DNA from: a virus
Taxonomy: Duplodnaviria; Caudoviricetes
Direction: 5' to 3' (one strand)
Virus record (IMG/VR): IMGVR_UViG_3300044638_002968
Coordinates: 1-51,367 of that record
DNA length: 51,367 nt
Shown: positions 12,317 through 51,367 of the stretch, piece by piece
How positions within the stretch are numbered: position 1 is the first letter of the stretch
Layout of the letters: every line of letters begins with the position of its first letter
Program-made: the position numbers and the translations under genes
Notes under the pieces: generated by a model
Database searches by the model: none
What the model saw: only the letters and a program-made list of their open reading frames with translations
Told to the model about the DNA's origin: nothing

Positions 12317-13776
12317 CGCTTCCCCTTCAGGTAACGTATCAGAGCAGCCTTCACCGCCTTGTTGAACTCTACGCTCGGGGCTTGCGGCGTTTCAGCCAGA
12401 CCCTTGGGCCAGACGCCATACTTGTCTTTGTAGGTGTGGGCTGCTCTGCCTGCGCTCCATCCGTGGTACTTGACCATGTATTGGCACATGCTGTACCAGT
12501 CTTGCTTGCTTTCCCGAGAGGCCGCTGCTTTCAGCTCCTCCATTTCTCCCGGCACTGACTCCACCATGCTGCGCTTCTCGCGGGTATAGCCGCAGTGAAT
12601 GCAAGTGTCTGACCCTCCGGCCCACAAGTGTCCGCACTTGGGGCACTTGGCCGCTTCCTTCTCCTTGTCGGTCTTTTCCTTCTTGGTCTTCTCGCGAGCG
12701 TCATCCAACTCATGCACGCCGTTGTTGTAAATCTCTTCCCAGTCCTCTTGGAACCTGATGTAGTTGCCTGCATGGTCAAGCCACACCGCGAACTCCTTGT
12801 CAGGGTAGCCGCGCATCACGCGACCCATCTGCTGGACGTGAGATGACAGCGACTTACTGAATGGCCGAGCACTTACGCCGATCATCACGTCAGGAACGTC
12901 AAAGCCCTTGGTCAAGATGTCGGTGGCGATCAGGCCATGAATCTCCGTGTCGGGCTTGCTGAAGTCTTCGATGACATCGCGCTTGAACTCGTCATCATCC
13001 TTGTAGGAAATGCTGATGAAGTTGTAGCCCTGCTCTGCGAACTTCTTGGACAGGTCTGCACCGTGCTCCACGCCTGAACAGAAGATGATGGTCTTGCGAG
13101 GGCGACCGAATATCTCGTGCGTCTTCTTGATCCACTCAGACACAATGTCGCCAGTGATCTGCATGCCGCGCTTCGTTGACTCCGCCTGACTCCACTCGCC
13201 GGCCACCTTCTTGGCACCAGTCATGTCGATCTCTTTGGCGACGAATACACGCAGAGGGCACAGCACTTTCTGGTCCACCAACTCCTTGGTTGTGACCGTG
13301 CTGACAACGCTCTCGTACACATTGCCCAAGCCCTTGGTGAAGGGTGATGCACTCAGGCCAATGACCTTGATGTCAGGGTTGTTCTTGATGAACTCGATGG
13401 TCTGCTTGCGCATGGCGTGCGCTTCGTCAACGATCATCAGCGTCAGGCCCGGAAAGGAGCCGCGCTTCTCGAGCGTCTGGGCTGAGCACACTTGGATGTT
13501 CTCGTATGGCCTGTAACGCCAGTGGCCTGACTGCAGCACGCCGTGCTCGATCTTGTACTTCTCAAGGCGCTGGCTTGTCTGATCGCACAAGATGATGCGG
13601 TCCAAAATCATGGCTGCACGATTCCCCTTCTTGTGGGTTGCATCCAGTAGCGCAATCGCCATCTCAGTTTTTCCGCCACCAGTCGGGCTATAAAGCATCT
13701 GCGCTTTGTAGCCAGCAGCAAAGCCTCTCCTTAGTCCATCCAAAGTATCGTTCTGGTATTTGCGCAACTCAAGCAT
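12313..13776 (-). CDS. Superfamily II (DEAH) helicase with C-terminal Zn ribbon
   Basis: LRKYQ, PTGGGKT, DEAH, SAS, TKGFDVP, QQMGRVMR, CPKC/CIHC; start taken at MLELR (13776). Confidence 0.92.
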   Translation of the reverse strand: MLELRKYQNDTLDGLRRGFAAGYKAQMLYSPTGGGKTEMAIALLDATHKKGNRAAMILDRIILCDQTSQRLEKYKIEHGVLQSGHWRYRPYENIQVCSAQTLEKRGSFPGLTLMIVDEAHAMRKQTIEFIKNNPDIKVIGLSASPFTKGLGNVYESVVSTVTTKELVDQKVLCPLRVFVAKEIDMTGAKKVAGEWSQAESTKRGMQITGDIVSEWIKKTHEIFGRPRKTIIFCSGVEHGADLSKKFAEQGYNFISISYKDDDEFKRDVIEDFSKPDTEIHGLIATDILTKGFDVPDVMIGVSARPFSKSLSSHVQQMGRVMRGYPDKEFAVWLDHAGNYIRFQEDWEEIYNNGVHELDDAREKTKKEKTDKEKEAAKCPKCGHLWAGGSDTCIHCGYTREKRSMVESVPGEMEELKAAASRESKQDWYSMCQYMVKYHGWSAGRAAHTYKDKYGVWPKGLAETPQAPSVEFNKAVKAALIRYLKGKR

Positions 13777-14254
13777 TTTTGTACCTCTTGTTGTTGACAA
13801 TCTTGGATATGGTCTGATGCACCACACCGTATTGATTGGCAAGCTCTTTTTGCTTTGCGCCGTGCGAGTACATGAGCCTTATTTCTGAGGCTTGTTTTTC
13901 TGTGAGTTTTGAGCCGGGATGCGCCGACCCGACAACGTGAGGGTTGCGTGGTGGCTTGCTGTTGCGCCCCTTCTTTACCATGTCATCCACGTTGTCTTGG
14001 TTTGTACCGAGGAAAAGGTGGCTTGGATTGCAGCAAGATGGAACATCGCACTCATGGCAAACAAACATGCCGCTTGGTATTTCTCCGTGGAAGTGCTTGT
14101 AGGTTATGTGGTGCGCCCTGTCATTTGGCATGCCTCTACCGCCCGTGCCAACGATGCCATATCCAAACTCGTTGGATGCGCCTGTAAAAATCCAGCACCC
14201 AGAAAATGGGATGCGGACAACCTTGTCAAGGACTCTTTCGATGACGGGCTTCAT
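13769..14254 (-). CDS. HNH homing endonuclease with C-terminal HTH
   Basis: GCWIFTGA...GYG...AHH...VCHECDVPSCCNPSHLFLGTNQDNVDDM...SKLT. Confidence 0.9.
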   Translation of the reverse strand: MKPVIERVLDKVVRIPFSGCWIFTGASNEFGYGIVGTGGRGMPNDRAHHITYKHFHGEIPSGMFVCHECDVPSCCNPSHLFLGTNQDNVDDMVKKGRNSKPPRNPHVVGSAHPGSKLTEKQASEIRLMYSHGAKQKELANQYGVVHQTISKIVNNKRYKNA

Positions 14255-17591: not shown

Positions 17592-17715
17592 GAAAAAAGC
17601 CGTTAGTTCAGACCCCGGTGGAACCCGCATGCTGGCTTTATGGGCCAACACACGGCACCCCAAAGGGGTCGGAGTCTGAACTAACGGCTTTCACTTACTT
17701 GGAGTTCCACGTCCT
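17592..17715 (-). ncRNA. C4/CI-like structured antisense RNA
   Basis: 22-bp closing stem (17596-17617 / 17670-17691, G:U only on the minus strand), internal hairpins and a 3' U tract; internal UUCCAC is complementary to upstream GUGGAA. Confidence 0.6.
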
Positions 17716-17724
17716 AGCGGCTCC

Positions 17725-17754
17725 AGTATATCAACAAAGGGGAACAGGGTGCAA
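17725..17754 (-). promoter_or_regulatory. Sigma70 promoter for the C4-like RNA
   Basis: TTGCAC, 18-nt spacer ending in TGA, TATACT (extended -10) on the minus strand. Confidence 0.6.
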
Positions 17755-17826
17755 CAACTTTGTCCACGGAGGTCCATTAAGGTACGTCTCGGCGGGTTTA
17801 AAAGCGACACGGTGTCGTATTTGGGC

Positions 17827-17853
17827 AAAAAAACCCCACGTCTGAGGTGGGGT
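17827..17853 (-). terminator. Rho-independent terminator after the VRR-NUC gene
   Basis: Minus strand ACCCCAC-CTCAGAC-GTGGGGT followed by a T run. Confidence 0.7.
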
Positions 17854-17894
17854 AAGTTCACTCAAGGAGAAACACCATGAAACACGCCTGCAGT

Positions 17895-18179
17895 TTAGCC
17901 GCAGGTGCGCAGCAGTGCAATGGCCTCTTCCACACTGTTCACAATGTACAGGTCTGAGCCGGGCCACTCGTCGTGGAACTTCTGCTCCGCGTCCGTCAGC
18001 CGGCGTGCCGATGGCGACTTAGCCCCGTCCTTCACCTCAATCAGCAGGGTCTCCCCACGGTAGCTCACCAGCAGGTCAAACAGCCCCTCGTCGTTGATCT
18101 GCTTGACGTAAGCACCCTCGGCACGCATAGCCTTGATGATGTCCTGCTCGTTGTCGTCGCGCCGCGCAGCTCGTCTCAT
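17895..18179 (-). CDS. VRR-NUC family nuclease
   Basis: RRAARRDDNE...DLLV...LIEVKDG...LT..EQKFH..W.G...V.SVEEA. Confidence 0.85.
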   Translation of the reverse strand: MRRAARRDDNEQDIIKAMRAEGAYVKQINDEGLFDLLVSYRGETLLIEVKDGAKSPSARRLTDAEQKFHDEWPGSDLYIVNSVEEAIALLRTCG

Positions 18180-18226
18180 AGGGTTTGTCCTAACGAAAAT
18201 AATTTGAAAATATATTGTATCGGTTG

Positions 18227-18256
18227 TTGACGAACCTGATATATAGCAGATACAAT
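18227..18256 (+). promoter_or_regulatory. Sigma70 promoter for the RNA array and RAMP operon
   Basis: TTGACG(18227-18232)-18 nt-TACAAT(18251-18256) with an AT-rich UP-like region. Confidence 0.7.
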
Positions 18257-18275
18257 CGAGTCCAATCTACCTGAT

Positions 18276-18856
18276 GTATCTAGGCACGACCGGACAAGGA
18301 TCGGCACGGAGAGGCGAGGCGGGGATTGGCTGGGGCTGTTAACAGCGGGATGGCTTTTGAGAAGAAGTCATTTCGGTGGCAACACCATTTGGACTGGTCT
18401 GCCACGGTGCGGCGGGGCGGGGTCGGGCATGGAAATTCTGGGTAAAACAAGGGCTGTTTACAGCGTTGTGAGCTTTTACTAAGAGCTCACCTCGGTGGCA
18501 ACACCAATCGGACGGGTCGGGCAAGAAACGGCTAGGTTAGGAGTGGTGAGACCGGGTCTGGAATGGACCGGCAGGGGCTGTTAACAGTGGAAAGCATTTT
18601 CATAGAGTGCTTTTCGGTGGCAACACCAAACTGGCGTGGTTGTGGCTCGGAGCAGCGCGGTCAGGCTCGGTCGGCAAAGGCATGGCGAGGGCTGTTAACA
18701 GCGTTATGAATCTTTACAGAGGATTCATCTCGGTGGCAACACCAAGCGGCGCGTCGCGGAATGGCAAGGACGGGCTGGGCGCGGATGGGACGGGCTAGGG
18801 CTGATGTAGCGTTATGACACTTCAACGAGGTGTCATTTCGATGCAAAGCGTGCATC
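18276..18856 (+). ncRNA. Array of five putative guide RNAs: (NN-GGH)n tract plus three-hairpin module (VIPR-like, not a canonical CRISPR)
   Basis: Conserved modules start at 18333, 18451, 18575, 18689 and 18798 (GGGCTGTTAACAGC...CGGTGGCAACACCA; fifth diverged). In the intervening tracts 51 of 61 in-phase triplets begin with GG. Confidence 0.85.
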
Positions 18857-18876
18857 AATCAACCAAGGAAAACATC

Positions 18877-19446
18877 ATGAAAACAATCGCAGTTCAATTG
18901 ACAGGTAAGGCCCCTTTGCTCATGCACTCGGACCGTTTCGCAAACCCGCTTGACCCACTGGCAAAAGCTCACAAAGAGCTGACCAGCAAGCGCAAGAAAA
19001 CAGACGACGATCACGTTGCCATCGCACGCAGTGAGTTCATTGGTGGCTGCTACTGGCGCAAAGACGTTGGCTTCTTTTTGCCGGCACAAAACCTTGATGC
19101 CTGCCTGATCGCCGCAGCCAAGCTGCAGAAGCTCGGCGTGAAATTTAAGCAGGGCGTACAGGTCTTGGAGGATGATCTTGTGTTTGCCGGTTACGAGAAG
19201 AAAACACCCGAGCAACTGTGGAGTGACCCCGAGTACATTGACTGCCGAGGCGTCAAGGTCGGCATGGCAAAGATCATGCGCTACCGCCCTATCTTGCGCA
19301 AGTGGTCACTGAACGCAACCATCGTTGTCAACGAGGAAGTGGTCAACGTCAACGAGGTAAAGAAGGCCGTACAAGATGCCGGCGCCCTGATTGGTCTGGG
19401 TGATTATCGGCCACGCTTTGGACGCTTCAACGTGGAGTTCATCTGA
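18877..19446 (+). CDS. Stand-alone RAMP/Cas7-like RNA-binding protein (Vipr-like)
   Basis: AAGGAAA RBS; N-terminal VQLTGKAPLLMH strand, LPAQNLDACL helix, YRPIL.KW, and a C-terminal Gly-rich loop AGALIGLGDYRPRFGRFNV as in RAMP folds; directly follows the array. Confidence 0.75.
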   Translation: MKTIAVQLTGKAPLLMHSDRFANPLDPLAKAHKELTSKRKKTDDDHVAIARSEFIGGCYWRKDVGFFLPAQNLDACLIAAAKLQKLGVKFKQGVQVLEDDLVFAGYEKKTPEQLWSDPEYIDCRGVKVGMAKIMRYRPILRKWSLNATIVVNEEVVNVNEVKKAVQDAGALIGLGDYRPRFGRFNVEFI

Positions 19447-19925
19447 TGCAGGAGACAACACTGTTCCCGGCTTGGAAACAGGCCGTCAAGATTCTGATTG
19501 ATGAAGGCATAACCTACGGTAGCACCATCAGCAGAAAACGCATCGCCGAGCTTTGTAACGTCAAGCCGCCTGAAAGCATTGAGGATGTTCGTAGGCATGA
19601 TCTCGAGCTCTTGCAATGCACATCAGAGATCAAGGACGTTCTACTGACGGCGCACTGCATGCTCTTGGTGTCCGACAACAAAGGCTCGTATGTGGTCATT
19701 GAGCCGGAGTCTCAAACCCAGTACGCAGTGGACACTGGCATCAAGGCGATTAGCCGAGAGATGAAGCGGATGGCAATGTCTGTCAGCTTCACCAAGTCTG
19801 AAATGCTCACCGATTCTGGCAGGGCAAAGAACGCAGACGCACAAGCAAAGATTTCAATGCTGGCAGGAATGATGAAGCTGAAAAACAGTGAGCTTCAAAA
19901 CGCAATAGGAGGCAAAAATGACTGA
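19446..19925 (+). CDS. Hypothetical protein translationally coupled to the RAMP-like gene (possible winged helix)
   Basis: TGATG stop/start overlap; 159 aa. Confidence 0.7.
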   Translation: MQETTLFPAWKQAVKILIDEGITYGSTISRKRIAELCNVKPPESIEDVRRHDLELLQCTSEIKDVLLTAHCMLLVSDNKGSYVVIEPESQTQYAVDTGIKAISREMKRMAMSVSFTKSEMLTDSGRAKNADAQAKISMLAGMMKLKNSELQNAIGGKND

Positions 19926-20166
19926 AGACGAGCGCCACGAATCAATCGACATTCTCTTCGATGCAGTTCGTATTTCCAACAAGTTCGGACCACTGATCCT
20001 TGACGATGCAAACAACATCGGCGGCACAGCAGCCACCGCAGCAGCCGTGATGTTGACCCAGTACAGCACGGCAATGGGCATGAACCTGCACGACACAATG
20101 AGCTTGTTTATGGCCGTGTACAAGCAGACCATTGTTATGGAGCGCGAAGATGAAGCTGACCAATAA
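19918..20166 (+). CDS. Hypothetical protein
   Basis: AGGAGG RBS. Confidence 0.65.
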   Translation: MTEDERHESIDILFDAVRISNKFGPLILDDANNIGGTAATAAAVMLTQYSTAMGMNLHDTMSLFMAVYKQTIVMEREDEADQ

Positions 20167-21058
20167 CTTCGGCATGCCTGAGACGATCCTCAACGTGATC
20201 GCACGGCCACAGTACAGCAAGGGCAAAGCCAACATGTCTGTGACGGAGCTGCTCAACAGTCCACGGATTGTCCAGCTCAAGCGCAAGCATTGGAATGACC
20301 TGACAGAGGACGCAGCCGACATGGTGTGGTCCATCTTCGGCACGGCCATCCACAACATCTTGGAGCACGGCAAGGGCGATACCCACATCGTTGAAGAGCG
20401 TATTCACATTGAACTGGACGGCATGCACATCAGCGGCGCTATTGACCTGCAAGAGGTGGAGCCAGACGGCATCATCGTGTCGGACTACAAGACCGTCGGC
20501 GCGTGGTCGGTGCTTAACGAGAAGCAGGACTGGCACAACCAACTCAACAGCTACGCCTACCTTGTTGAAGCGGCCAAGAAGCTGCCCGTGATCAAGTTGC
20601 AGATCGTAGCCATCGTGCGCGACTGGAGCCGCAGGGACGCAGCAACACGCGAGGGCTACCCCAAAGCACCCATCGTGGTGATTGACATCCCTCTGTGGTC
20701 GTTTGAAGAACGCTTGGCCTATGTCCGCTCGCGCATCTCTTTGCATGGCGACGCGCTCTTCGAGATGGAGACTGACGGCGAGATGCCTGAATGCACACCC
20801 GAAGAGTGTTGGGAAAAGCCAACAATGTACGCCCTAAAGAAGGATGGCAACGTCCGGGCCAAGAGCGTCCACGAAACAAGCGAAGCAGCAGACACGGCTC
20901 TGGCTGCCGCAACAGAAAAAGCCAAGAAGGGCGAGAAGTTCCTGATCGAAGTTCGTGAGGGGGACCGCACTCGCTGTTCTAGCTTTTGCCAAGTGGCTGG
21001 CATGTGCAGCCAATATCAAAAGTATCTTTCTACCAAGCCAACTCAAGGAGAAATCTAA
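20150..21058 (+). CDS. PD-(D/E)XK (RecB/Cas4-like) exonuclease
   Basis: SVTELL, GTAIHNILE, ISGAIDL...SDYKT, QLNSYAYL, C-terminal RCSSFC...C. Confidence 0.8.
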   Translation: MKLTNNFGMPETILNVIARPQYSKGKANMSVTELLNSPRIVQLKRKHWNDLTEDAADMVWSIFGTAIHNILEHGKGDTHIVEERIHIELDGMHISGAIDLQEVEPDGIIVSDYKTVGAWSVLNEKQDWHNQLNSYAYLVEAAKKLPVIKLQIVAIVRDWSRRDAATREGYPKAPIVVIDIPLWSFEERLAYVRSRISLHGDALFEMETDGEMPECTPEECWEKPTMYALKKDGNVRAKSVHETSEAADTALAAATEKAKKGEKFLIEVREGDRTRCSSFCQVAGMCSQYQKYLSTKPTQGEI

Positions 21059-25067: not shown

Positions 25068-28000
25068 TTAGTTACGATCTTCCATCGCCTTGACCCGTTC
25101 ATTGAGCACTTGCATCCTGCGGGTGATCAGCTTTTCGACGGCTTGGATTGACTCTTTTGAAGCATCGCGCTCGAGCAGTGCCTTGCGGCGCTTGCGTAAC
25201 TCCTGAACATCCTTGAAGGTCTTGTTAGCTAGAGGTAACAAGCGGGCTTCTGGATTCTCTTTAAGAAAGTCCCCAAGCGGCTCCTTGCGCTCCCTGCGGC
25301 CCGTGACCACGTTGTTCAACTCGTTCAGCTCCTTCATGTTCTTGTAGAACTTGTTGGACTCTGCTGCTGCGCTTTTCGTCTCGCCTACAAATCGGCCATA
25401 CAGGGGTATCTTGTAAGGCGGCAGCTCCTCACCAGTGATGGTCTTGTCGATGGTGGTTGTGAGCTTCACAAGCTCCCGGCCCACACCGCCAGTTGCTTGG
25501 CCGATCAGGTATTCGATCTGCTCTGGCGTAGGACTGATGACGCCCTGCCGATCCTTGTCGCCACCACTGGCGGCGTTTAGGAACTCAGCCAAGGCCGTGG
25601 TCAGGAAGTTAGCACCCTCTCGAGCCCGTGAGTAACCCGGCGTTGGGTTCAGGGAGAACATATCCTCCTTGGAGATCGGCTTGCCTGTGAAGTCCTTGTT
25701 CTCACCAAGCGCAACCAACGGGTCAAGGATAGTTGGAGTAATGGTCTGCACCGACCAGCCAGCGTTACCTACTGGGTTGAAGGCATCAAGGAACAAGCCA
25801 GTCAAATCCGTGACGCGGCGAGCCGTATCGTCAAAGCCAGACATGGCCCACTCAGTCAAGATGCGCGAGATGCCCGGTATGACGTGAAATCCTAGAGGCA
25901 TCGGGAAGGCCACGTAATTGCCATTGCCAGTCGGGATCAGGATGTTCTTGGACCGGATGAACTCTGGCGGCTCCTCGTCATCGAATCCGGCAGCAGCCAA
26001 AAGCAAAGCCTGCATGGAGCCAAGCAGCAGACCGCCGGCCATGATCTTCTTACCCATCGGCCCCTTAAGGGTTTCGACCATGCGTGCAGAACCCTGCATA
26101 GAGGCGTTGAAGAACGCATACAGTGCGCCCATCTGCGTGGCTACGTCACCCTTGCGGTTGAAGTTCACAGTCAGGTTCTTTGCCAAGGACGCGGCCTTCT
26201 GCTTGGCCTCGCTGTCGCTGAAGCCTTCCTTTTTGAACTTCTCTTTGGCGACCTTGTAGGCCGACAGGCGGACGGCGTTTTCCAAAGAGTCGTTGTAGTC
26301 ACTAAGCCAGTCAAAGACAGCGCGAGCATCAGCCTTGGCCTTACCCTCGGTGATCTTCTCCATCTCGTTCAGCAAGGCCTCTGTGCGGTCCTGCGTGCGG
26401 CTAAAGTTGTCTCGGAAGCCTGTCTGCCCACCTTCGCTTTGAAACTCCTTCCAGAGCTTCGCCATGTCGCTGTCAACCGTCTCGCCCTTGCGGCGCTTTC
26501 TCAGGCTGGAGTAGATCGCTCCCATCGAAGGAATGACCAATTTAGCAATTTCCTTTTGCTGACCAGCCAGCTCCGTAGTGGAAAGCTGAAGTGCGCCAGC
26601 CTGAATGTCGCGCAAGAAGTTGTAAGGACCGAAGATTGGGTTGTACTGCGTGTTGACCGAAGCCATCCAGCGGGTAACCTTTGCGATCATGCCCAAGGTG
26701 GTGCCAAGGTCCTGTGCGTCAAGGTTCTTCAGCGCCGTAGCAGCGCGTGCAGAGCGAGGGTCTTTGGGGTTGAAGAGGACGTACCGCTTCTCGCCGTTGA
26801 CGCGAGTAGCCAAGACGAAATCGTTCTCGCGCAGCTTGGTGTTTACCCTGCTGATGACCTCGTTTTTCTTCGGGTCCAGCACGCGCTGCTTTGGCTCCTT
26901 CATTAAGAACTTAACTGCGTCCTCATCCAACCCCATGGCGCGAAGCTCGTCAATTGCATCTTGAGGAACCTTTTCTGCTTCAGGATTAATAGCCATCCAA
27001 AAGTCTGGGTTTGGAGCCTCCAAAGCAAGACCGTACACGGCCTGCGCAACACGGTTCTTTTCAGTCAGGGCGATGGCGTTGTTGCGAGCGGCGATCACGT
27101 TACCGATGATGTCCACCACGTTGCGCTTTGAGCCCATGGCCGAGCGGCTGAAGTCACGGCGAACGTCAAAGCCACGGCCAGTTCCAAAGCTGCCAAAGTT
27201 GTAGTCGAAGTCCATCTCCTCGCGCATCAGTGGAACGTAGTTAGGGAATGCTTTTTCCCAGCCCTCAACGGTCTCGGCCTTTTCGTAGCCAGTGTCCACC
27301 AGTAGTTTGCGCGTGCCCTTGGTGATGCCATCTACGCGCTTGGCTAACTCTTCGTACTTGGCCTTAGTGTCGGCGTCCAAATCAGCAAGGTACTTGCGTG
27401 CAGCCTCTGTGGTGACGCTAGAGCCGCCGTCTTGCATCTCAGGACGATTGGGATTGCGCTTGGCAACGAGCTTGTTGTAGTCCTCTGCATGGCGGTTGAG
27501 CAGGTACTTCTCCAACGCGCCAATGGTCACATCTTTCTTCTGCATGTCCTGCAAAAGAGGAAGCCACTCGTTATCTTGGAACAGCTTGGAAGCCTCAGCC
27601 GTGCGACCGTGGTACAGCTCCTCTTGCAGGTACGGGTTCCACCTCGTTGCAATCTCTTTGCCTGTGCTCTTGACGGCTTCTATGACGCGCTTAATGTCGA
27701 TGTTCTTGTCGAGCAGCTTGTAGATCAAGCCGTCTTGCAGTTCCATCTTGGGATCGGTCGTGATTGACCAAGTGCCAAGCACCGGCTCGCCAAAGATGTT
27801 CTGGCGGGTGGGGTTGACCTGCATGGCATTGATGTCTTGGACATCCGGATCGTAAGTTCCGATGTTGCCGGTGGCGGATTTAATTTGGGTGGGACTAAGT
27901 GCAATCCATGCAACTTGATTGTCAAATTCAGTGGAGCCCTCATTACCGCTGGCTTCAATCTTGATTCCATCCTTGCCCATAGACTTGAGCCAAGCACGAT

Positions 28001-31000
28001 AAGCCTCAACTTCTTCTGCACCAATTGGACGGCCATCATCCTTGCCGTTATGCAGCTTGCGTGCTCGGCTTGTCATCAACTGGAAAGTTGTAACCTGCGG
28101 GTTTTTGATCGACAAGTACACAGGGTAGATGACGCTTCCGGAATCACTTCCAGAGTACATCTCCGCACCACCTTCGCCGGGGTTGGTGCTGAACCAGCTC
28201 CCCACAGTGTCGATGGATGGACGGCGGAATCGAGTGGTAAACATCCGATCAAAGGCTTTAATGTCGCCCATGTCGGTGCCATCCCCCATGGGGCGAACAA
28301 AAGTTCCGTGGTAAACAACCATCGGCTCACCATTCTCATCCACCACCTTGCTGTTACCGAACCAGCGCTTGAAGGCTGGCGCGTTTGGTGCAGCCTGCAT
28401 TGCATTGATGTCAGCAGACCTGCCACCCAAAGAGTCTTGACGAATAACGGAAAAAAGTTCGCCAACATCTGAGGTGTATGTTGTCTTCACGTTGCGCGGA
28501 TCGTCAAGTCGGGCATAGGAGAAAACAAAGGCATCCTCGTCATCTGTGGCGTCCGGCTCTTCCTCTTTGCTGACGCCGAAATACTCGCCATCGACGTTGG
28601 CGATGTAGTCCCAGTCTTGCCACAGGCTGAATGAGTTACTGTCGGTGACGCGCTTAAGCTTGTCGTTAGGCTTCTTCAGTAGCTTCCTTGCTTCATACAG
28701 GTTGTATGCCTCTGGCCCACCGGGGAAGTCGCCAATCTCCGTGTTGTCACGCACGTCCTCATCCATTGCAGCAATGGCGTCGGCGTCCTTGTAAATCTGG
28801 CTTTTGTTTTTGGCAGTTACTTCTCTAGTACCTCGATCTTCGAGTCGCGCAGTTCCGCTGACGCCAGCGCGTTCTTCGCCAGCATCGGGTTGAACTGCTG
28901 CACCTTCAACAGCTCTTGCGGGCTGAATTTTGATTCCAGCAGTGCTTGTCTTTGTTGTGCCTGTTGCTCTTGCTGCTTGCGATTCATTTTGAATCCTTTC
29001 GACAATGGATTGAATTTGTGAGTATGCCTCTGGCGCGTTCGTTTGTAAATCCACAGGAGATACAAAATAATAGGCAAACGCTTGAGCGAATGTCTCTTCT
29101 TTGGGTCGCACCCTTCCCTTGAATTGCGGTGCAAACGGATACGCCATTGGGTGCTGAAGCTTATTCGCGCTACTGGTGTACCAGCGCTGCAACTCTGTGT
29201 AAGCCTTGGTCCAGCCCGCCTTCTCGGATGGCTTGCCGCCAGCCGTGTCTACCGCATGAGCAAGCTCGTGAATTAGGGTTTGCAGCTTTTCTGATTTCGA
29301 TGAATCTTTCCACTTTTTGGCAATCATCAGTGAGCCGCCTGACGACATAACCGCAACCGCATCCATGCGAGTTGAGCCCGCAGCAGTGACGTTACCAAGC
29401 ACCGATGGAGGAAGGCCAAGATCAAGCGCATCGGACGCAAGCCCAGTAATCTCTCTTACCTGCACAGGAGTTAGGCCTGCCGGCTTTAAAAGCTGAGTCT
29501 TTTTGGCCGACCTCGCCATGAAGGGGGGGATGGGGAATCTAAGCTTTAAAGCAAAATTCTCCATGGCCTCCTTGCGCTCTTTCTCTAGACTGATTGCAAC
29601 AACCTTGGGTTCGGGCTCTGGTGCTGGAGATGGCTCGGGCTCTGGCTGATTGAAGATGTCACCAGTCGTGTCCTGACGACCTTCCTCGCGGGTCAACTCA
29701 AACTGACCAGCGCCAGCTTCGGACTCTTTGCGCACCTGCTCACGCTCATCAAGCTCAGGGGCCTTGGCTTTGCGCTCTTCCTCCTCAACCACTTGATCTT
29801 TGGTCGGGCTCTCAAGCTTCAGACGCTCCTCTTCCAAGCGCTTGCGCTCCTCAAGAAGACGAGCCTCGCGTTGGTTCAGCTCTGCTTCGCGGTCAAGCTG
29901 GGCTTTGCGTTTCTCGAAGTCAGCATCTGCCTTTTCTGCTTCGCGCTGTTCAGGAGTTCTATCCGCTTCTGGGGCGGCAGGCTCCTCAATAACTTGATCA
30001 AGCTCTCTTTGTTCATCGGCGGCATATTGAAGCTCCCTGTTAATTTCATCATCAGACAGTAAATCTTGAATCTGACGCTCAATCGACTCAATATCATTTT
30101 CAACTTGCTGGATGGCAAGCTCTGTTTCGTAGGTGTAGGGCTGGTTGTTGCGCAGCTTATCGCGGACGTATTCCGCCGACTCGCTGTTCACATAGTCGGG
30201 GCTATCCGGGCGCATCTTCACAGGCAAAAAGATGTCCAGCTTTCCGCTATCAACCATGTCTTCCATGGATGCACCGGGCTGACCCTTTGGTGCCTTTAAG
30301 TTCAGGAATGGGTTCTTGCCAACTTGGCGAGCACGGCCACCTAGCTCAGACAATTCCGCGTCTCTCAGTGCACCTCTCAGCACCTGAGTTAGGCTGGTTC
30401 CAGAAGTTCGCTTTGCAAGCTTATCGCGCTCTGCAACTGCAAGTTCTTGATCTTGCGTCAGCTTTTCAACCTCAGCCTCAACCTCTGGGATCATGGGTTG
30501 GGGTGTGCCTTCCATCCTGCCAAAGTTCTTGAGCTCTTTGCCCGTAAGTGGATCGACAGGTGGTGCTTCGCGAGCTTGCAGTTCTCCAAGCTCCATGTTT
30601 CCAACAACCACGTCGCGGCTCTCAACTGGAGGCAGCTCAGCCTGTCCAAACACACTGGTCTTTGTGGCCTCTGCGTCAGCTTCACGATTTCTCTTCAGGG
30701 TCTCGGCCTCTGAGCGCAGGCGTTCGATGTCGCGCTTGAGCACTTCGCGGAGTTGCTCGTCAATCCTGCCCAGCAGTTTCTTGGTTTCGGGCGTTTGATC
30801 ACCTTGCAGAAGGCGCTGCTTTTCCCGCTGAAGGAATGCGTAGTCGTCGCCAAGGGGAATTTCACCAACAGGCTCGGCGGCTGCACGTCTTTCGGTGACG
30901 GCTCTGGCCAATGGGTCCTCACGCCCTCCAAGCAAGGGGTCCTCAGGAACGCCAAGCAAGACGTCAGGCCTTGTTCCAGAAATGGATGGCCGCTTAGTGT

Positions 31001-32225
31001 ATGGGTCGGGCGTCGGCTGTTGTAATGATTCTGGCGGGGGCACGCCCTGACCACTTGGTACAAGTGGAGGATTCTTGGCGCCCTCTTCGGCAATGCGCTT
31101 TGCTTCCTCCTCCTCCTTGAGAATCCTGCCAGCTTCGGTGCGAGCCTGCCCCCTGAGCATGTCTTGTGTTGTTGAGTATGCGGCAGCAGGAACCGATGCG
31201 GCAGAGCCACCAAGCTCACCGAGCATCTCTGCGCCAACATCCTCAAGATTAACTTTGCCATATGCAGCCAGTTGGCCGGCAGCCTCGGATGCACCGCCGC
31301 CAGCCGTTTCAATACCCACAGCGCCAGCGCCACGACCAACCTTTTGCAAGGGCGTCCTAGCCTTCAAAAGCTCATCTGCACGCTTTGCAATTTGCGCAGC
31401 ATCAGCAACATCGCCAAGCTCTTTTCGTGCAGCATCAATAGCAGAGCGCCGCGCACCAGTAGCAAATTTACCAGCACCAACAGTCATCAAGGAATCAACA
31501 GCAGCAGTGGTGACGCCCTTGGTTCTTGCTTCACTGATTGCCTGCTCAACAACCGTCTTGTCGCGTAGCAGCGCGGCAATATTTTCCTCTGTGGGTGGAA
31601 GCCCTCGCTCACTAAGCTTTTCACTGATGCGGCCAATGAACTCAGAGCCAATCTCAAGAGGAACGCCAGCAGCAAAACCGCCACCAATAGCTCCAGCAGC
31701 AGCACCAACAGCCGCGCCACCGGGGCCAGCCAGAGAGCCAGCCAAAGCGCCGCCCTTGCCGCCAGCGATCATGCCTGCGATCTGAGGGGCCATGTTTGCT
31801 GCGCTCGAGGCGGTCAGGTAAACAGCGCCCTTGGGGTTGGTAATGACTTGCTTGCCAAATTCCAGCAAGAAGCCAGCAAAGGGACCAATGCTTTCAGTGA
31901 ATCCCTTGGCCTTTTCAAACGCTTCAGCTTCATCCTTGAAAGCGGTCTGAGCCTCAACCAATTCCTTGGGCTGTACGCTCGGCTTCATAGAAAGCTGCTC
32001 AGACAGAACCTTGGCCTTGTCCTCGCCAACATTGCCAGCAATGACAGACGGGGAGACCTGAGCGGCGCCAATGGCACGCTTGCCACCTTCGACAAGCAAG
32101 CTACCTACGTTGGAGAAGAAGCCCTTGTCCTTGACTGGTTTTTCATCGAACAGATCGGCGCTAAAGTCGCGTCCACCTTTACCCTCGGGGCTAAACAGCT
32201 CCGAGCTGAGATCACGTCCAGCCAT
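25068..32225 (-). CDS. Giant polyvalent internal virion (ejection) protein: zincin-like HExxH domain, ADP-ribosyltransferase-like domain, LPD38-like C-terminus
   Basis: 2385 aa; LIHELAHAVD...EETFAQAF; FKRWFGNSKVVDENGEPMVVYHGT...WFST...YPVYLSIKNP...QIKSATGNIGTYD; NLTVNFNRKG...LYAFFNAS. Confidence 0.8.
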   Translation of the reverse strand: MAGRDLSSELFSPEGKGGRDFSADLFDEKPVKDKGFFSNVGSLLVEGGKRAIGAAQVSPSVIAGNVGEDKAKVLSEQLSMKPSVQPKELVEAQTAFKDEAEAFEKAKGFTESIGPFAGFLLEFGKQVITNPKGAVYLTASSAANMAPQIAGMIAGGKGGALAGSLAGPGGAAVGAAAGAIGGGFAAGVPLEIGSEFIGRISEKLSERGLPPTEENIAALLRDKTVVEQAISEARTKGVTTAAVDSLMTVGAGKFATGARRSAIDAARKELGDVADAAQIAKRADELLKARTPLQKVGRGAGAVGIETAGGGASEAAGQLAAYGKVNLEDVGAEMLGELGGSAASVPAAAYSTTQDMLRGQARTEAGRILKEEEEAKRIAEEGAKNPPLVPSGQGVPPPESLQQPTPDPYTKRPSISGTRPDVLLGVPEDPLLGGREDPLARAVTERRAAAEPVGEIPLGDDYAFLQREKQRLLQGDQTPETKKLLGRIDEQLREVLKRDIERLRSEAETLKRNREADAEATKTSVFGQAELPPVESRDVVVGNMELGELQAREAPPVDPLTGKELKNFGRMEGTPQPMIPEVEAEVEKLTQDQELAVAERDKLAKRTSGTSLTQVLRGALRDAELSELGGRARQVGKNPFLNLKAPKGQPGASMEDMVDSGKLDIFLPVKMRPDSPDYVNSESAEYVRDKLRNNQPYTYETELAIQQVENDIESIERQIQDLLSDDEINRELQYAADEQRELDQVIEEPAAPEADRTPEQREAEKADADFEKRKAQLDREAELNQREARLLEERKRLEEERLKLESPTKDQVVEEEERKAKAPELDEREQVRKESEAGAGQFELTREEGRQDTTGDIFNQPEPEPSPAPEPEPKVVAISLEKERKEAMENFALKLRFPIPPFMARSAKKTQLLKPAGLTPVQVREITGLASDALDLGLPPSVLGNVTAAGSTRMDAVAVMSSGGSLMIAKKWKDSSKSEKLQTLIHELAHAVDTAGGKPSEKAGWTKAYTELQRWYTSSANKLQHPMAYPFAPQFKGRVRPKEETFAQAFAYYFVSPVDLQTNAPEAYSQIQSIVERIQNESQAARATGTTKTSTAGIKIQPARAVEGAAVQPDAGEERAGVSGTARLEDRGTREVTAKNKSQIYKDADAIAAMDEDVRDNTEIGDFPGGPEAYNLYEARKLLKKPNDKLKRVTDSNSFSLWQDWDYIANVDGEYFGVSKEEEPDATDDEDAFVFSYARLDDPRNVKTTYTSDVGELFSVIRQDSLGGRSADINAMQAAPNAPAFKRWFGNSKVVDENGEPMVVYHGTFVRPMGDGTDMGDIKAFDRMFTTRFRRPSIDTVGSWFSTNPGEGGAEMYSGSDSGSVIYPVYLSIKNPQVTTFQLMTSRARKLHNGKDDGRPIGAEEVEAYRAWLKSMGKDGIKIEASGNEGSTEFDNQVAWIALSPTQIKSATGNIGTYDPDVQDINAMQVNPTRQNIFGEPVLGTWSITTDPKMELQDGLIYKLLDKNIDIKRVIEAVKSTGKEIATRWNPYLQEELYHGRTAEASKLFQDNEWLPLLQDMQKKDVTIGALEKYLLNRHAEDYNKLVAKRNPNRPEMQDGGSSVTTEAARKYLADLDADTKAKYEELAKRVDGITKGTRKLLVDTGYEKAETVEGWEKAFPNYVPLMREEMDFDYNFGSFGTGRGFDVRRDFSRSAMGSKRNVVDIIGNVIAARNNAIALTEKNRVAQAVYGLALEAPNPDFWMAINPEAEKVPQDAIDELRAMGLDEDAVKFLMKEPKQRVLDPKKNEVISRVNTKLRENDFVLATRVNGEKRYVLFNPKDPRSARAATALKNLDAQDLGTTLGMIAKVTRWMASVNTQYNPIFGPYNFLRDIQAGALQLSTTELAGQQKEIAKLVIPSMGAIYSSLRKRRKGETVDSDMAKLWKEFQSEGGQTGFRDNFSRTQDRTEALLNEMEKITEGKAKADARAVFDWLSDYNDSLENAVRLSAYKVAKEKFKKEGFSDSEAKQKAASLAKNLTVNFNRKGDVATQMGALYAFFNASMQGSARMVETLKGPMGKKIMAGGLLLGSMQALLLAAAGFDDEEPPEFIRSKNILIPTGNGNYVAFPMPLGFHVIPGISRILTEWAMSGFDDTARRVTDLTGLFLDAFNPVGNAGWSVQTITPTILDPLVALGENKDFTGKPISKEDMFSLNPTPGYSRAREGANFLTTALAEFLNAASGGDKDRQGVISPTPEQIEYLIGQATGGVGRELVKLTTTIDKTITGEELPPYKIPLYGRFVGETKSAAAESNKFYKNMKELNELNNVVTGRRERKEPLGDFLKENPEARLLPLANKTFKDVQELRKRRKALLERDASKESIQAVEKLITRRMQVLNERVKAMEDRN

Positions 32226-42427: not shown

Positions 42428-44311
42428 TCAACGTGACCCGTCTGGGCGCAAATCGAGCCTCGGAGCCCCCAACTGCCACGCCACACCCAAGCCAGTGCTG
42501 GAGATTCGCATGGCCATCTGGCGAGCCCTGATGCGCGTGTAAACCTGCCCCGTGAACTGCTCCACCGGCAGATCGACCGTGCGCGTGACCGTAGCTGTAT
42601 TGGTCAACCCTACGGAGGCTGGGTCGGTGTAGCCAGAGCCTGCGTTCTTCAAAGGCAACAGCGACATCACAATAGAAGGGTTGGCTGCGCTGGAGTTGCG
42701 GAACGTCACGTCAGGCAGCATCCTCCACACAAAGGAGAACTTGTGTCCATCGTCCAAGTCAAATTCAGCGGAAGTGATGAAAGACTCCATTGCCACGGGC
42801 GTACCGCTCATGTTGTCGTCGTTACCAACTTCATGGTTGACCAAGTTGTTTACATACGTTGCAGCGATAGGGCCAGCCTGCAAGCCGGAATCCAACCAAG
42901 CCGTACGGCCCATGTTGCCGTAGTACCAGATGTCCTCAAGGTAGTTGTAAATGGCGTAACGGTCCAGCACCACAGAGCCCTGTGAGCAGTAGAACCACCA
43001 CACCTCGTTGAAACCCTCGTTCGTGCCGCACACCACCTGCTCCATTTGGGCTTGGTTGATGTCGCTGAAGATGTACTGCCGCAAGTCGCAGCGCAGCGTT
43101 TGAGTCCGACCGTCGTACTTGTAGAACTTGTCAGTCCCCATCCAATACGAAACACCAGAGGCCAAGCTTGCGGCCTTTTGCCCTGCAATAGAAGTGTTCT
43201 CTCCCACCAGCTTTGCTCCCCATCCTTCGGTTCCGCCGATGTATTGAAGGGAGTACACGGCTGCATCCGTCCACACCAAAAGCTCTTCTCGAGACTGCTG
43301 GATAGCCACAATCTCTGAGCCTTGGGACAATTGCAAACTGCCCGATTGGTTTGTCGGGGCTGGGGTCCAGTCCACCACGCTTTCCTGATCAGACCAGCGA
43401 ATCAGCATGGGGTTAATAATGGCGGAGCCAACGTCATTACAGCCAAAACAAAACACGAACCGGCTGATGTCAGACACATAAACAATGTTAACTTTGGTGG
43501 GAACGTCTGATGCACCGCCCAACGTAGTCACGTTTACACCACGGTTTGCAGATACACCGGCTGAAGCATCCCAGTAATACAGACCGCCGCCGCGAGGTGC
43601 AAACACCAAGTCCTCACCGAAATTGCTCTGGCTCCAGATGCGAAGCGAATCGGTCGATGCGCTACCCACGCCCCAAGTGCCAGTACCCCAAGCGCCAGCG
43701 CCCCAGCCGGTCAGAGGAACGACCACCGCAGGGCCAATGTTCACTTGGTAGGCCGCAGTCACCGTACCGCCGCCAGTAGCCGTAGAGCTTGCGTTGCTGG
43801 ATGCTGTGATGGTGTAGGTGGTTCCGCCAATGGCTGTAAGTTGAAACTCGCCATTCAGGGTTAAACCACCCACCGCAGTGGCTCCGCTGAAGGTTACAAA
43901 GTCCCCGTCAGAGTAGCCTCCCGCTGCGTCAGTTACCTCCACAATCGGAGAGCCGGAAGTGGTTTCAAACGGATTGGTCAATGTCTCTGTATCGCGCAGT
44001 GGCGTGATGTCATAGTAGCTGCCGCCTTGGTTCACGTAGAACTTTAAGTTCGTGCCAACGCCGATTAGTCTATTGCCACCCAAAGTCACCCAGTTGTTTA
44101 GGGAGCGACAGATTCCAAGGTAGTAACTGGTGGAAAACGGAGACCACCCGCCAAGCTTTTCAGCCGAGCCGGAACGGAAACGAATCTTGTCGCAGTCGTA
44201 CCAACCCGCAGAATACGAGCCGTTTACACCTGTGGGACCGACGTTCTCGGACAGGTAGCGGGTGTTTTCGCGTGCCACACCGGGACGCACGAGTACGCGT
44301 TTTAAAGGCAT
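42428..44311 (-). CDS. Tail nozzle / P22 gp10-like stabilisation protein
   Basis: WYDCDKIRFR, IRWSDQE, EVWWFY, C-terminal RIRARQ...LG.PRLDLRPDG.R; AGGAGG RBS. Confidence 0.7.
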   Translation of the reverse strand: MPLKRVLVRPGVARENTRYLSENVGPTGVNGSYSAGWYDCDKIRFRSGSAEKLGGWSPFSTSYYLGICRSLNNWVTLGGNRLIGVGTNLKFYVNQGGSYYDITPLRDTETLTNPFETTSGSPIVEVTDAAGGYSDGDFVTFSGATAVGGLTLNGEFQLTAIGGTTYTITASSNASSTATGGGTVTAAYQVNIGPAVVVPLTGWGAGAWGTGTWGVGSASTDSLRIWSQSNFGEDLVFAPRGGGLYYWDASAGVSANRGVNVTTLGGASDVPTKVNIVYVSDISRFVFCFGCNDVGSAIINPMLIRWSDQESVVDWTPAPTNQSGSLQLSQGSEIVAIQQSREELLVWTDAAVYSLQYIGGTEGWGAKLVGENTSIAGQKAASLASGVSYWMGTDKFYKYDGRTQTLRCDLRQYIFSDINQAQMEQVVCGTNEGFNEVWWFYCSQGSVVLDRYAIYNYLEDIWYYGNMGRTAWLDSGLQAGPIAATYVNNLVNHEVGNDDNMSGTPVAMESFITSAEFDLDDGHKFSFVWRMLPDVTFRNSSAANPSIVMSLLPLKNAGSGYTDPASVGLTNTATVTRTVDLPVEQFTGQVYTRIRARQMAMRISSTGLGVAWQLGAPRLDLRPDGSR

Positions 44312-44351
44312 GTTACAATCCTCCTATAGCGGGCTCAACAAGGAGAACACC

Positions 44352-45206
44352 ATGTTTGTTTACATTTGGAAGGATGCCAAAAACATCCCTTTCTACGTTG
44401 GATTCACAAACTCCACGCGAAGAACCAACCCCCACAACAGCACCAAAAGGAACTGGCTTTGCGAGCAAAAACTCAAAGAGGTTGGTCGAGCGCATGTGGT
44501 TGTCGAGTTGCGGTTTGTAGATTCAATTATCACTGGTCAGGAGCTTGAGCGCAAACTGATACATGAGTATGGACGAATCCAGACAGGGACGGGACCTCTG
44601 ACCAACCTTATGCCGGGCGGCGAGGGCGCAAACAAAATGCCCGAAGATGTTAAAGCGTTGCGGCGGCAAGCAATGCTCGATCCAAACAACCCAATACGAA
44701 GCCCGGAGGCGGTAAAGAAAAGAAACCTTGCAATTAAAACACGCATGAACTCTCCGGATGTCAAAGAGGCTATGCGCGGCGAATCAAATATTGCAAAATT
44801 GCCGGAAGCGCGGGCAAAGTTAAAAGCAGTCTGGCAAGACCCCGTATACAGAGCTGCGCGAATTGCCGAGCGAACAGGATCGCATCCAAACTTTTCGCAA
44901 GAAGTAAGAGTTGAGATGTCGGAGCGGCTTCGGTTAAATCCGGGCATGAAAGGTTGGGGTGAGCGTAACGGCAAAGACTCTGAATTTGACGCTAAACGAA
45001 TTGCTGGCATCAAAGCCGCACAACCAAAGCGCCTTGCAAAAATGGCAGACCCTGCCGCTCTTGCAAAACGCAAAGCCAAACTTATAGCAACCATGAGTTC
45101 ACCCGAGTACAAAGCAAGACGAGCCCAATGGGACACGCCGGAATACCGCGAAAAATTGGCGGCAGCAAAACGAGAGTATTGGGCAAAACGCAAATCCTCC
45201 ACTTAA
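44352..45206 (+). CDS. GIY-YIG-like (putative homing) endonuclease, antisense within the late operon
   Basis: FVYIW...PFYVG...R...ERKLIHEYGR...GPLTNL..GGEG; basic helical repeats; own AAGGAG RBS and TGT-TACAAT -10. Confidence 0.75.
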   Translation: MFVYIWKDAKNIPFYVGFTNSTRRTNPHNSTKRNWLCEQKLKEVGRAHVVVELRFVDSIITGQELERKLIHEYGRIQTGTGPLTNLMPGGEGANKMPEDVKALRRQAMLDPNNPIRSPEAVKKRNLAIKTRMNSPDVKEAMRGESNIAKLPEARAKLKAVWQDPVYRAARIAERTGSHPNFSQEVRVEMSERLRLNPGMKGWGERNGKDSEFDAKRIAGIKAAQPKRLAKMADPAALAKRKAKLIATMSSPEYKARRAQWDTPEYREKLAAAKREYWAKRKSST

Positions 45207-47767: not shown

Positions 47768-48271
47768 TTAGGCTCCTTTCAGTTGGTAAGATGCAAATGC
47801 GCCATAAAATTTATTTTGCGCTTCTAAAGAAACAAGTTCAGCAAACTCTAAATCATCATATGATCCAATATGAGTTCTTTTTTTATTGACAGTAACACAA
47901 ACTTTGTATTTGCCCGTTGGTTTGTGGTAAGAAACATTTTTAACTCCCGTGCAACTGTCTTTGCGTATTTTTTTGTTGATTGCATTTTCTGACTTTGTTG
48001 CGTTTCTTAAATTTTCAATTGAGTTGTTTTGTATATTTCCGTCAATGTGATCAATTATTTTTGGCAAGTACCCTTTGTGCATTAAAAACACAATTTGGTG
48101 AACCATAAACCTTTGGTCTTTATACCTTGATCGTAAATAAGGCTGTTTTGCACCATTAGTACCGCCGACTTTACTTCCAATTTGCATACACATTGCAGGT
48201 CTAATTTTCCAAAACAAATCGCCATCCTTGTACTCAAACAAGCGGTGGGCTTCTTCTTGTGTCAAGTTCAT
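47768..48271 (-). CDS. HNH endonuclease with AP2-like C-terminal domain
   Basis: H.IVFLMH.G..P..IDHIDGNIQNNSIENLR.AT.SEN; TGVKNV...HIGSY; AT-rich relative to its neighbours. Confidence 0.9.
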   Translation of the reverse strand: MNLTQEEAHRLFEYKDGDLFWKIRPAMCMQIGSKVGGTNGAKQPYLRSRYKDQRFMVHQIVFLMHKGYLPKIIDHIDGNIQNNSIENLRNATKSENAINKKIRKDSCTGVKNVSYHKPTGKYKVCVTVNKKRTHIGSYDDLEFAELVSLEAQNKFYGAFASYQLKGA

Positions 48272-51200: not shown

Positions 51201-51367
51201 GTTACAGTGCCTCCGGCAGTCCACAGCAAAATAGCCTGACGCGCTTCGTTAGCCACGCCCGTGCTGGTGGTCAGCGTTACATCGGCATCAGAACTCAGTG
51301 TGGTTGTGCCAGATATGGCGGTGTCAAGTAGAGAGGTGATTGCGGTGTTAACCGTGTCGCCCCACGA
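48290..51367 (-). CDS. Tail fibre with C-terminal S74-type intramolecular chaperone (5' end beyond the window)
   Basis: Frame stays open to the window end (SWGDTVNTAITSLLD...); repeated D.SGNLGIGT modules; TSSDYRLK...GLIAHEVQ...DYS..IA.LIAEIQ. Confidence 0.88.
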   Translation of the reverse strand, partial: SWGDTVNTAITSLLDTAISGTTTLSSDADVTLTTSTGVANEARQAILLWTAGGTVTRNITAPAQSKAYFVINKTSSTQSIVIRGAGPTTGVTVLAGTQSLVVWNGVDFVEVASGNVDGPATSTDNAVARFDGTTGKLIQNSVVTIADSTGNMAGVGTLGVGAITTSGALTYGGVTLSNSVTGTGSMVLSTSPTLVTPALGTPSALVGTNITGTAAGLTAGNVTTNANLTGAVTSTGNATLLGSFSSANLAGALTDETGTGSAVFATSPTLVTPALGTPASGVVTNLTGTASININGTVGATTATTGAFTTLAASGDVTLSGGTANGVAYLNGSKVLTSGSALTFDGTTLQNSRNSNSETPLMQVTNSNSGTSAWAGFQSSNGTTVATFGTIGTGYTPYGVLSPNRQFLYSNAALALASESFIAFGAGGGVTEGMRLTSTGLGIGTSSPGAKLDVQDANAQFKLTSTTGTNSVFANLINTGGNLYVGRENSVGTSFGATPYSSVIFSSGAYPLEFFTNNSKRATLDSSGNLGIGTSLPTRKLTVASETAGLPTLGTGSGGLFLSSTNGLYGLYGGVNGSNGDSWLQAMRNDAATSYNIVLNPAGGNLGLGVTPSAWGSGYKAMQIAGYVAFAQRPAGSGDLILSWNAFNTSGNTSGSGYVYKNTGDVASSYEQNGAHRWYVAPSGTAGDAISFTQAMTLDASGNLGIGTTSPLAKLHTSGSGTVSNFITTSDSGGVNLYLQVSGSAANIGSPNGVPLTFTTANTVKATLDTSGNLGLGVTPSAIGGGRYLQFLSTSSVGQQANGTANFMNNAYESGGNSFSYIVSAGAARYNVSAGTHAWYNAPSGTAGDAISFTQAMSLTAAGDLLIGQTSANYNVNGTFITATGGVNSVATSATAALFNRKSTDGAIIDFYRDTSNPGSISVTTSATSYNTSSDYRLKNITGPITTSGAYIDSLNPVEGTWKADGSTFVGLIAHEVQESSRTLVATGEKDGEQMQGMDYSNSELIANLIAEIQSLRARLAAANI
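48807..49327. repeat. 38-bp exact direct repeat within the tail fibre gene
   Basis: GTGAAGCTAATAGCGTCACCTGCTGTGCCGGAGGGGGC at 48807-48844 and 49290-49327. Confidence 0.9.

Follow-up and report, generated by a model that had tools for sequence, protein, structure and literature searches.

The DNA considered here, the window, is the whole of the virus record IMGVR_UViG_3300044638_002968 (Duplodnaviria; Caudoviricetes), which at 51,367 nucleotides (51 kb) is about 79% complete. Its gene set includes terminase, portal, ERF, SSB and polyvalent-protein genes, the terminase being nearest to those of phages DSL-LC04 and HTVC023P/027P (49-56% identity), and by that protein the carrier appears to be a lytic-looking tailed phage, HTVC023P/DSL-LC04-like. 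No tRNA genes were found within the window. Two HNH endonuclease genes and one for a GIY-YIG endonuclease (13769-14254, 47768-48271 and 44262-45206) lie amid replication and structural genes, and a polyvalent protein of 2385 aa (25068-32225, minus strand) has LPD38, ART-PolyVal and weak metallopeptidase-like domains.

The locus itself (Table 1) has five guide tracts of 10-14 units each alternating with a repeat of some 55 bases, and unit 3, the subject of most of what follows, is the guide of the third vrRNA. The candidate promoter is the best of 4 sites in 17700-20300; further upstream, in intergenic DNA at 17596-17691, is a 22-base inverted repeat, 95% complementary, with its halves 52 bases apart. 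For the repeat between the guides the predicted fold is one long hairpin, with z from -2.9 to -6.4 across copies, and two-sided changes occur at 8/19 of its consensus pairs among 24 aligned copies hand-picked from the window and 7 related loci. An Rfam search gave no score near the gathering threshold.

Table 1. Features of the guide array and the genes behind it (positions in the window)
Feature	Position	Strand	Remarks
Sigma-70-like promoter TTGACG-18-TACAAT	18227..18256	+	10/12 consensus positions; consensus match alone
Unit 1 guide tract	18278..18332	+	sense Y-T-R-[KN]-S-T-[DE]-[DE]-G-[FL]; matches large serine recombinases in proviruses
Structured repeat 1 (tail/spacer)	18333..18386	+	conserved
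Unit 2 guide tract	18391..18450	+	26/26 identical in 4 related loci
Structured repeat 2	18451..18505	+	conserved
Unit 3 guide tract (vrRNA)	18508..18574	+	13 GGN/NN pentamers and a leading NN
Structured repeat 3, the 3' tail of unit 3	18575..18627	+	long hairpin; z -4.9, 0/200 shuffles
Unit 4 guide tract	18629..18688	+	reverse S-[IM]-[FL]-R-[DE]-[WC]-A-A-[DE]; P4-type tyrosine integrase catalytic-box region
Structured repeat 4	18689..18743	+	conserved
Unit 5 guide tract	18746..18797	+	no target found
Terminal repeat 5, divergent	18798..18866	+	z -2.9
vipr gene	18877..19446	+	189 aa RAMP-like protein
Accessory gene, vap1-like	19446..19925	+	159 aa; phrog_5926

The vipr product matches SUSP1 Vipr (PDB 36pp; E 1.3e-45 over residues 1-188) and also phrog_4652. 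Its G-loop is GLGDYR, and it keeps the equivalents of H17, K33, R39, K82, R138, D177 and R179, the seven residues to which the structure paper assigns contacts with RNA or DNA (bioRxiv 10.64898/2026.04.26.720927). The accessory protein matches phrog_5926 (E 1.4e-15), as does the gene behind vipr in both Felixounavirus allfine and Pseudomonas phage LESphi2; pairwise identity to the allfine counterpart is 19% (E 4e-5), its matches in the ESM Atlas were viral clusters without a name alone, and a single-sequence model (pLDDT 54) was too poor for use. On sequence grounds the locus is a VIPR system, type II-like, and unit 3 is one of its guides. TIGR-Tas and CRISPR were considered and dropped, the period being 5 and the protein Vipr. 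The literature cited here on these systems is bioRxiv 10.64898/2026.04.26.720920,.720927 and 10.64898/2026.10.15.759431, together the ‘VIPR papers’, and also 10.64898/2026.10.21.760802.

Shared with the type II VIPR of SUSP1 and the Felixounaviruses are a full-length Vipr homologue, an accessory gene of the same PHROG directly behind vipr, multiple vrRNAs that have 9-16 pentamers and a structured 3' part, a 1-nt skip, and guides on recombinase codons of competing elements. Unlike there, all five units precede vipr, the repeat differs from that of the Felixounaviruses in being a long hairpin, the targets cover at least two element classes, A is frequent as third base and three pocket residues are changed. 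With the Pseudomonas prophage VIPR of LESphi2 the start and end of the repeat and the gene order are shared (Vipr identity is 46% to LESphi2 and 58% to phage Medea1), but the present carrier is not a Pseudomonas prophage and GGA is rare in LESphi2 (1/33). The window has 30 GGY, 14 GGA and 10 other triplets, GGA thus making up 14/44 of the GG triplets against 0/39 purines in phage allfine, and in the clade the third base of GG triplets is A in up to 38% of units and G almost never (window 18278-18797; L010-L051). As the VIPR paper allows related triplet consensuses (NNNGG etc.; bioRxiv 10.64898/2026.04.26.720920), the non-GGY triplets may mark a variant rather than failed membership. SUSP1 pocket residues E71, M72 and C173 are Q, N and I in this Vipr; these three are also found in relatives with 3% purines, and so permit rather than explain the GGA bias. 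One relative (L039) has nearly pure GGC tracts and an extra tract downstream of vipr.

What might the third vrRNA address? The NN series is exactly as claimed by a sequence-only reading that had proposed an AlpA/excisionase-type helix-turn-helix (HTH) gene as its target: the window parses as tc GGA/cg GGT/cg GGC/aa GAA/ac GGC/ta GGT/ta GGA/gt GGT/ga GAC/cg GGT/ct GGA/at GGA/cc GGC/ag, with GG starting 11/13 pentamers (12/14 as counted for periodicity; the exceptions are GAA and GAC), and at least 11 in-phase GG were reached in 0/20000 base shuffles of the tract. The preceding repeat ends at 18505 and the next begins, GGG/ct, at 18575, directly after the tract; the leading NN (tc) is preceded by CAA of the repeat end and may perhaps be outside what is read. 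Recomputed, the reverse complement with one-base gaps was again as that reading had it, L G [IM] [RS] R S T [Y*] [Y*] V [FL] R R [DE]. An encoding of the skipped base by the third position of GGN was rejected, as by hand it would give stop codons in unit 3. Related guides are 26/28 (L015) and 18/20 (L010/L011) identical, the latter version having no distal part. Three phage lineages, whose Vipr proteins are 95-100% identical, retain a 10-unit core, in which the triplets drift and a single NN varies. That one, position 4, is a tolerant helix position: it is S/R in the window, G in L015 and A in L010/L011, residues that also occur there in natural HTH matches. Within the window (record about 79% complete) the best self-match of unit 3 was 17/28, with 0 at 3 mismatches.

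The mode of readout can be judged from the neighbouring guides and from a clade set of 50 related viral loci with some 140 distinct guides (144 in the profile ranking). Read in its own sense, unit 1 finds exact gapped matches at 120 or more sites of viral contigs, one of which (L124) was identified by Pfam Resolvase and Recombinase domains as a large serine recombinase, beside DUF2924; unit 1 reads with the coding strand and pairs with the template strand of these genes. For unit 4 the reading runs against the coding strand of P4-type integrases. It reaches 17/18 on PICI-like loci, in which AlpA, capsid and terminase genes are present as well, and a search of genomes with mismatches allowed gave 7/101 against 0 for the control pattern, all seven in integrase-like ORFs of 405-431 aa (2/7 Pfam-checked). 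For unit 2 there were 0 viral matches and 0/351 genomes, and for unit 5 no target was found. The skip itself was examined, to avoid circularity, with 88 clade guides outside the two families that had fetched the loci (38 being excluded for that reason; ten distant loci and tracts of <10 units were excluded too): a best match of at least 18/20 was obtained by 6/88 with a 1-nt skip against 0, 0 and 0 with skips of 0, 2 and 3, though at a threshold of at least 17/20 the counts were 7 against 6, 6 and 2, with 0-3 for shuffled guides. The 1-nt skip holds at clade level, and it is from the clade that it would be extended to unit 3. Most decodable clade guides match integrases or recombinases, and the proposal of a gapped, codon-phased guide of an RNA-guided system against mobile elements is borne out by the clade and by units 1 and 4.

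Among the other clade guides, those at L014:2720, L015:2652, L041:2399 and L043:2565 match, at 18-19/24, the terminase and two further integrase segments of PICI-like elements (L207-L214), from which these phages appear to combat capsid-encoding satellites. In proviruses L078, L083, L088, L095, L121, L124 and L140 a guide family (L012:2639, L019:202 and L021:989) matches a small early gene that is separated from the serine recombinase by several kb. Another (L031:2720), with the reverse reading R-[FY]-[FL]-T-V-T-G, matches an ORF in L314 at 17/20, which is not above the null; the reading may resemble a primase motif. Long guides at L026:2589, L027:2827, L031:2826 and L037:2758 are seemingly spliced from two parents, which suggests recombination of pentamer tracts as a source of new guides.

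Is the reading of unit 3 as HTH codons more than pattern-spotting? On a profile of 120 natural AlpA proteins, picked post hoc after the motif had been suggested, its reverse series scores best on the recognition helix, and it beats 4997/5000 order shuffles (3/5000 reach its score, and 0/5000 base shuffles), so that equally motif-like peptides, whose frequent appearance from shuffled series would have told against the sequence-only reading, are in fact rare. On the same profile it tops the 144 distinct clade guides (13.7; two recombinase guides come near, at 12.0). Natural sequences point the same way. The proximal nine units (15 bases) have 32 matches in viral contigs, the best 20/28, and 22 of these retain the motif in an open frame of at least 40 aa; of 13 that were scanned, 6 have a Pfam HTH hit spanning the motif (overlap judged by hand), of resolvase, XRE, IS and terminase-small-subunit types, while the other 7 are 2 transposases with the HTH elsewhere and 5 ORFs without a family. 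With Pfam HTH domains across it in 6/13, the proximal motif is a real HTH ‘word’.

The gene which this word would come from was sought widely, by exact scans of whole collections and by genome searches that allowed three mismatches and had the reversed pattern as control. In viral contigs the exact 22-base gapped pattern gave 0 matches, a 16-base pattern 9 (best 24/28) and the distal 15.5 bases 10 (best 22/28, none HTH); metagenomes gave 3, one of them a transposase HTH at 20/28. The strict pattern had 0 matches in GTDB and a relaxed 17-base pattern 10, none reading as an HTH ORF, with 6/10 having a stop inside the motif and the 4 open ones being membrane-protein-like or repetitive by inspection. 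Counts against control were 2 vs 2 in 201 genomes of Gammaproteobacteria and 11 vs 20 in 201 of Alphaproteobacteria (each including one site known beforehand), and 3 vs 4 and 16 vs 26 in 401 and 301 genomes of Burkholderiales, the sets being samples of their groups with overlapping draws and many incomplete genomes. Searching in this way does recover the integrase target of unit 4 (7 vs 0). A protein word search with a natural 65-aa HTH stretch that has most of the motif yielded 89 transposase-like fragments with a ceiling of 21/28. The idea of an anti-VIPR guide was dropped, the best match of unit 3 to related VIPR loci being 18/28.

Two sites reach 24/28. One, selected by the 16-base pattern, is the HTH in a terminase-small-subunit-like protein (L007) of a phage that, going by its protein family, is judged to come from the gut. 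The other, the best cellular match, is palindromic and lies immediately ahead of a HigB-like gene of Stenotrophomonas, being present in 4/61 genomes of that genus. Both are above the line of 80% of NN positions used for targets in one of the VIPR papers, yet both are at chance level, within the spread of the accompanying matches. A contig filed under Nocardiopsis (L195; JBJNRH010000017.1), possibly a contaminant, shares its higBA-upstream sequence with L201 and L071 of Stenotrophomonas. The gapped pattern, proposed by the sequence-only reading as its own check, thus found no HTH gene near-complete beyond chance in any search, an outcome which that reading had itself set against its proposal, and what it had called a second hit on a mobile-element control gene is not supported. 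How much weight does such absence carry? A Betaproteobacteria label on one 72% Vipr homologue and Noviherbaspirillum labels on PICI-like genes point to Burkholderiales as host group, where some 700 of the genome searches with mismatches were made; the right genomes may lie outside those searched. Unit 2 is fully conserved in four related loci and yet no target was found for it, so the failure to find a site says little against its existence.

Part of the answer could be that unit 3 is a mosaic or outdated guide that no longer has a full-length target, its motif being partly coincidence. Clade guides are often mosaics (two parental guides are visible in those at L026:2589, L027:2827 and L037:2758), so unit 3 may lack any one site that fits its full length, and the failure of every search together with the missing distal part in L010/L011 agrees with this. 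We nevertheless consider it unlikely, as the 10-unit core is kept in three lineages while the triplets around it drift, with just the one NN varying, and as the conservation of unit 2 indicates that missing targets are common in these collections.

A different doubt concerns the strand. The core AC.TA.TA.GT is its own reverse complement, because of which the sense reading of unit 3, S R R [KN] T Y Y V [DE] R L [IM] P [RS], is also integrase-like. Read on the strand of unit 1, the guide would address the first codons of an integrase, R-R-x-T-Y-Y-V-x-R-x-I-P, in a DUF6538-like arm. That reading falls on the conserved RRxGxYYFRxRVP block of the N-terminal profile of 30 DUF6538 genes, at a level reached by 54/3000 shuffles, the L015 version is the top clade guide on this profile, and an integrase would agree with the bias of the clade towards integrases and recombinases. 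Against it, DNA matches in the 30 genes go no higher than 16/28, significance is lost when the 10-unit core is taken by itself (287/3000), the profile was chosen post hoc, and the pattern searches, blind to strand, yielded no such gene; such an integrase target for unit 3 is distinctly unlikely. The sequence-only reading had argued that unit 3, lying on the opposite strand from unit 1, favours dsDNA over mRNA as target, but with both of its strands decoding to mobile-element-like motifs and both profiles post hoc, unit 3 cannot carry that argument. The preference for dsDNA stands through units 1 and 4, which read on opposite gene strands with unit 1 on the template strand, and through published work that shows Vipr binding to dsDNA (bioRxiv 10.64898/2026.04.26.720920 and.720927). 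In a related phage the integrase segment of unit 4 is targeted from the opposite strand (L046:2617), which is direct sequence support for DNA targeting.

Returning to the HTH reading, was the sequence-only reading right to narrow it to AlpA or an excisionase, and would that gene lie in the same satellite or prophage as the target of unit 1 or 4? Eight decoded positions are on common residues of AlpA (PF05930: G2, S4, R5, S6, T7, Y9, L11 and E14), and the PICI-like elements of unit 4 do carry an AlpA gene. However, five of the 14 positions are foreign to the 120 AlpA proteins (L1, Y8, V10 and R12 at 0%, I3 at 1%), because of which the DNA match has a ceiling of 19/28, below the 80% line, in that sample, HTH_17-type excisionases being outside it. 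PF05930 had 0 hits among the 18 motif-bearing ORFs scanned. No co-occurrence was seen in elements that are relatives of the targets and not known to stem from the host of this phage: the best match of unit 3 was 19/28 near 80 of 120 unit 1 recombinase loci with flanks, 18/28 in 20 further stretches of unit 1 proviruses and 16/24, which is shuffle level, on 8 PICI-like loci; it was absent from all seven genomes with unit 4 matches (0/7), and shared an element with the unit 1 target in 1/50 whole records, taken from the 120, against 1/50 for the control. Nor is an AlpA or excisionase target named in the available portions of the VIPR papers, though target lists in their data files may bear on it. 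Canonical AlpA as target is already largely refuted, and a regulator of the AlpA/Xis type in such company is very unlikely.

Highly improbable is the notion that unit 3 addresses not codons but a palindromic operator or promoter, e.g., upstream of higBA-type toxin-antitoxin genes: the 24/28 Stenotrophomonas site does overlap a promoter palindrome and the start of the HigB-like gene, and a core that is self-complementary (at 6 of 8 inner guide bases) would allow binding of either strand, but the palindrome is weak (891/20000 shuffles), the site is from Stenotrophomonas and matches 6/10 unconstrained bases among 8 distinct GTDB sites scoring 18-24, as chance would allow (estimate about 0.25), nothing comparable came from the 702 Burkholderiales searches, and the expected effect of shutting down a type II toxin-antitoxin operon is release of the toxin, to the detriment of the phage. 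If it were nonetheless true, the phage would be tuning a defence module of the host or an island via a purine-tolerant (GGA-rich) Vipr variant.

The likeliest site for unit 3 is the recognition-helix codons of an HTH protein other than a canonical AlpA, with the consensus L-G-I-[S/G/A]-R-S-T-Y-Y-V. The array would be transcribed from the promoter at 18227, and, if the mechanism described in the VIPR papers applies here, Vipr subunits would coat the guide, one per pentamer, hiding GGN and presenting NN, with the NN pairs binding one strand of dsDNA, every third base skipped, and transcription being blocked. Like the neighbouring guides, unit 3 would most likely silence a gene belonging to some competitor that resides in the host, in this case a prophage, satellite or insertion element whose HTH gene may be absent from the searched collections or have diverged too far to be picked up there. 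That unit 3 guides a Vipr filament to the HTH recognition-helix codons of a resident competitor, and so silences the gene, we would put at even chances. An HTH target for a VIPR guide would be a known theme, as guides of the P. fulva clade of Pseudomonas are reported, in one of the VIPR papers, to target transcriptional regulators of the lysis-lysogeny switch; if true here, it repeats that theme.

The system itself is already known, and what is new is a further VIPR locus with one variant trait, its GGA-rich triplets. A guide that decodes to a convincing protein motif on both strands makes the recognition of a motif a lead and not the calling of a target. The natural GGA triplets could relax guide design, given that one of the substitutions assayed with SUSP1 is GGY>GGA and that, according to the text, perturbation of GGY abolished silencing there (bioRxiv 10.64898/2026.04.26.720920). 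VIPR has so far been described from enteric and Pseudomonas phages, and the same code is now seen in an environmental phage clade, whose guides converge on proviruses with serine recombinases and on PICI-like satellites with P4-type integrases, by which the anti-satellite picture is extended and left unchanged.
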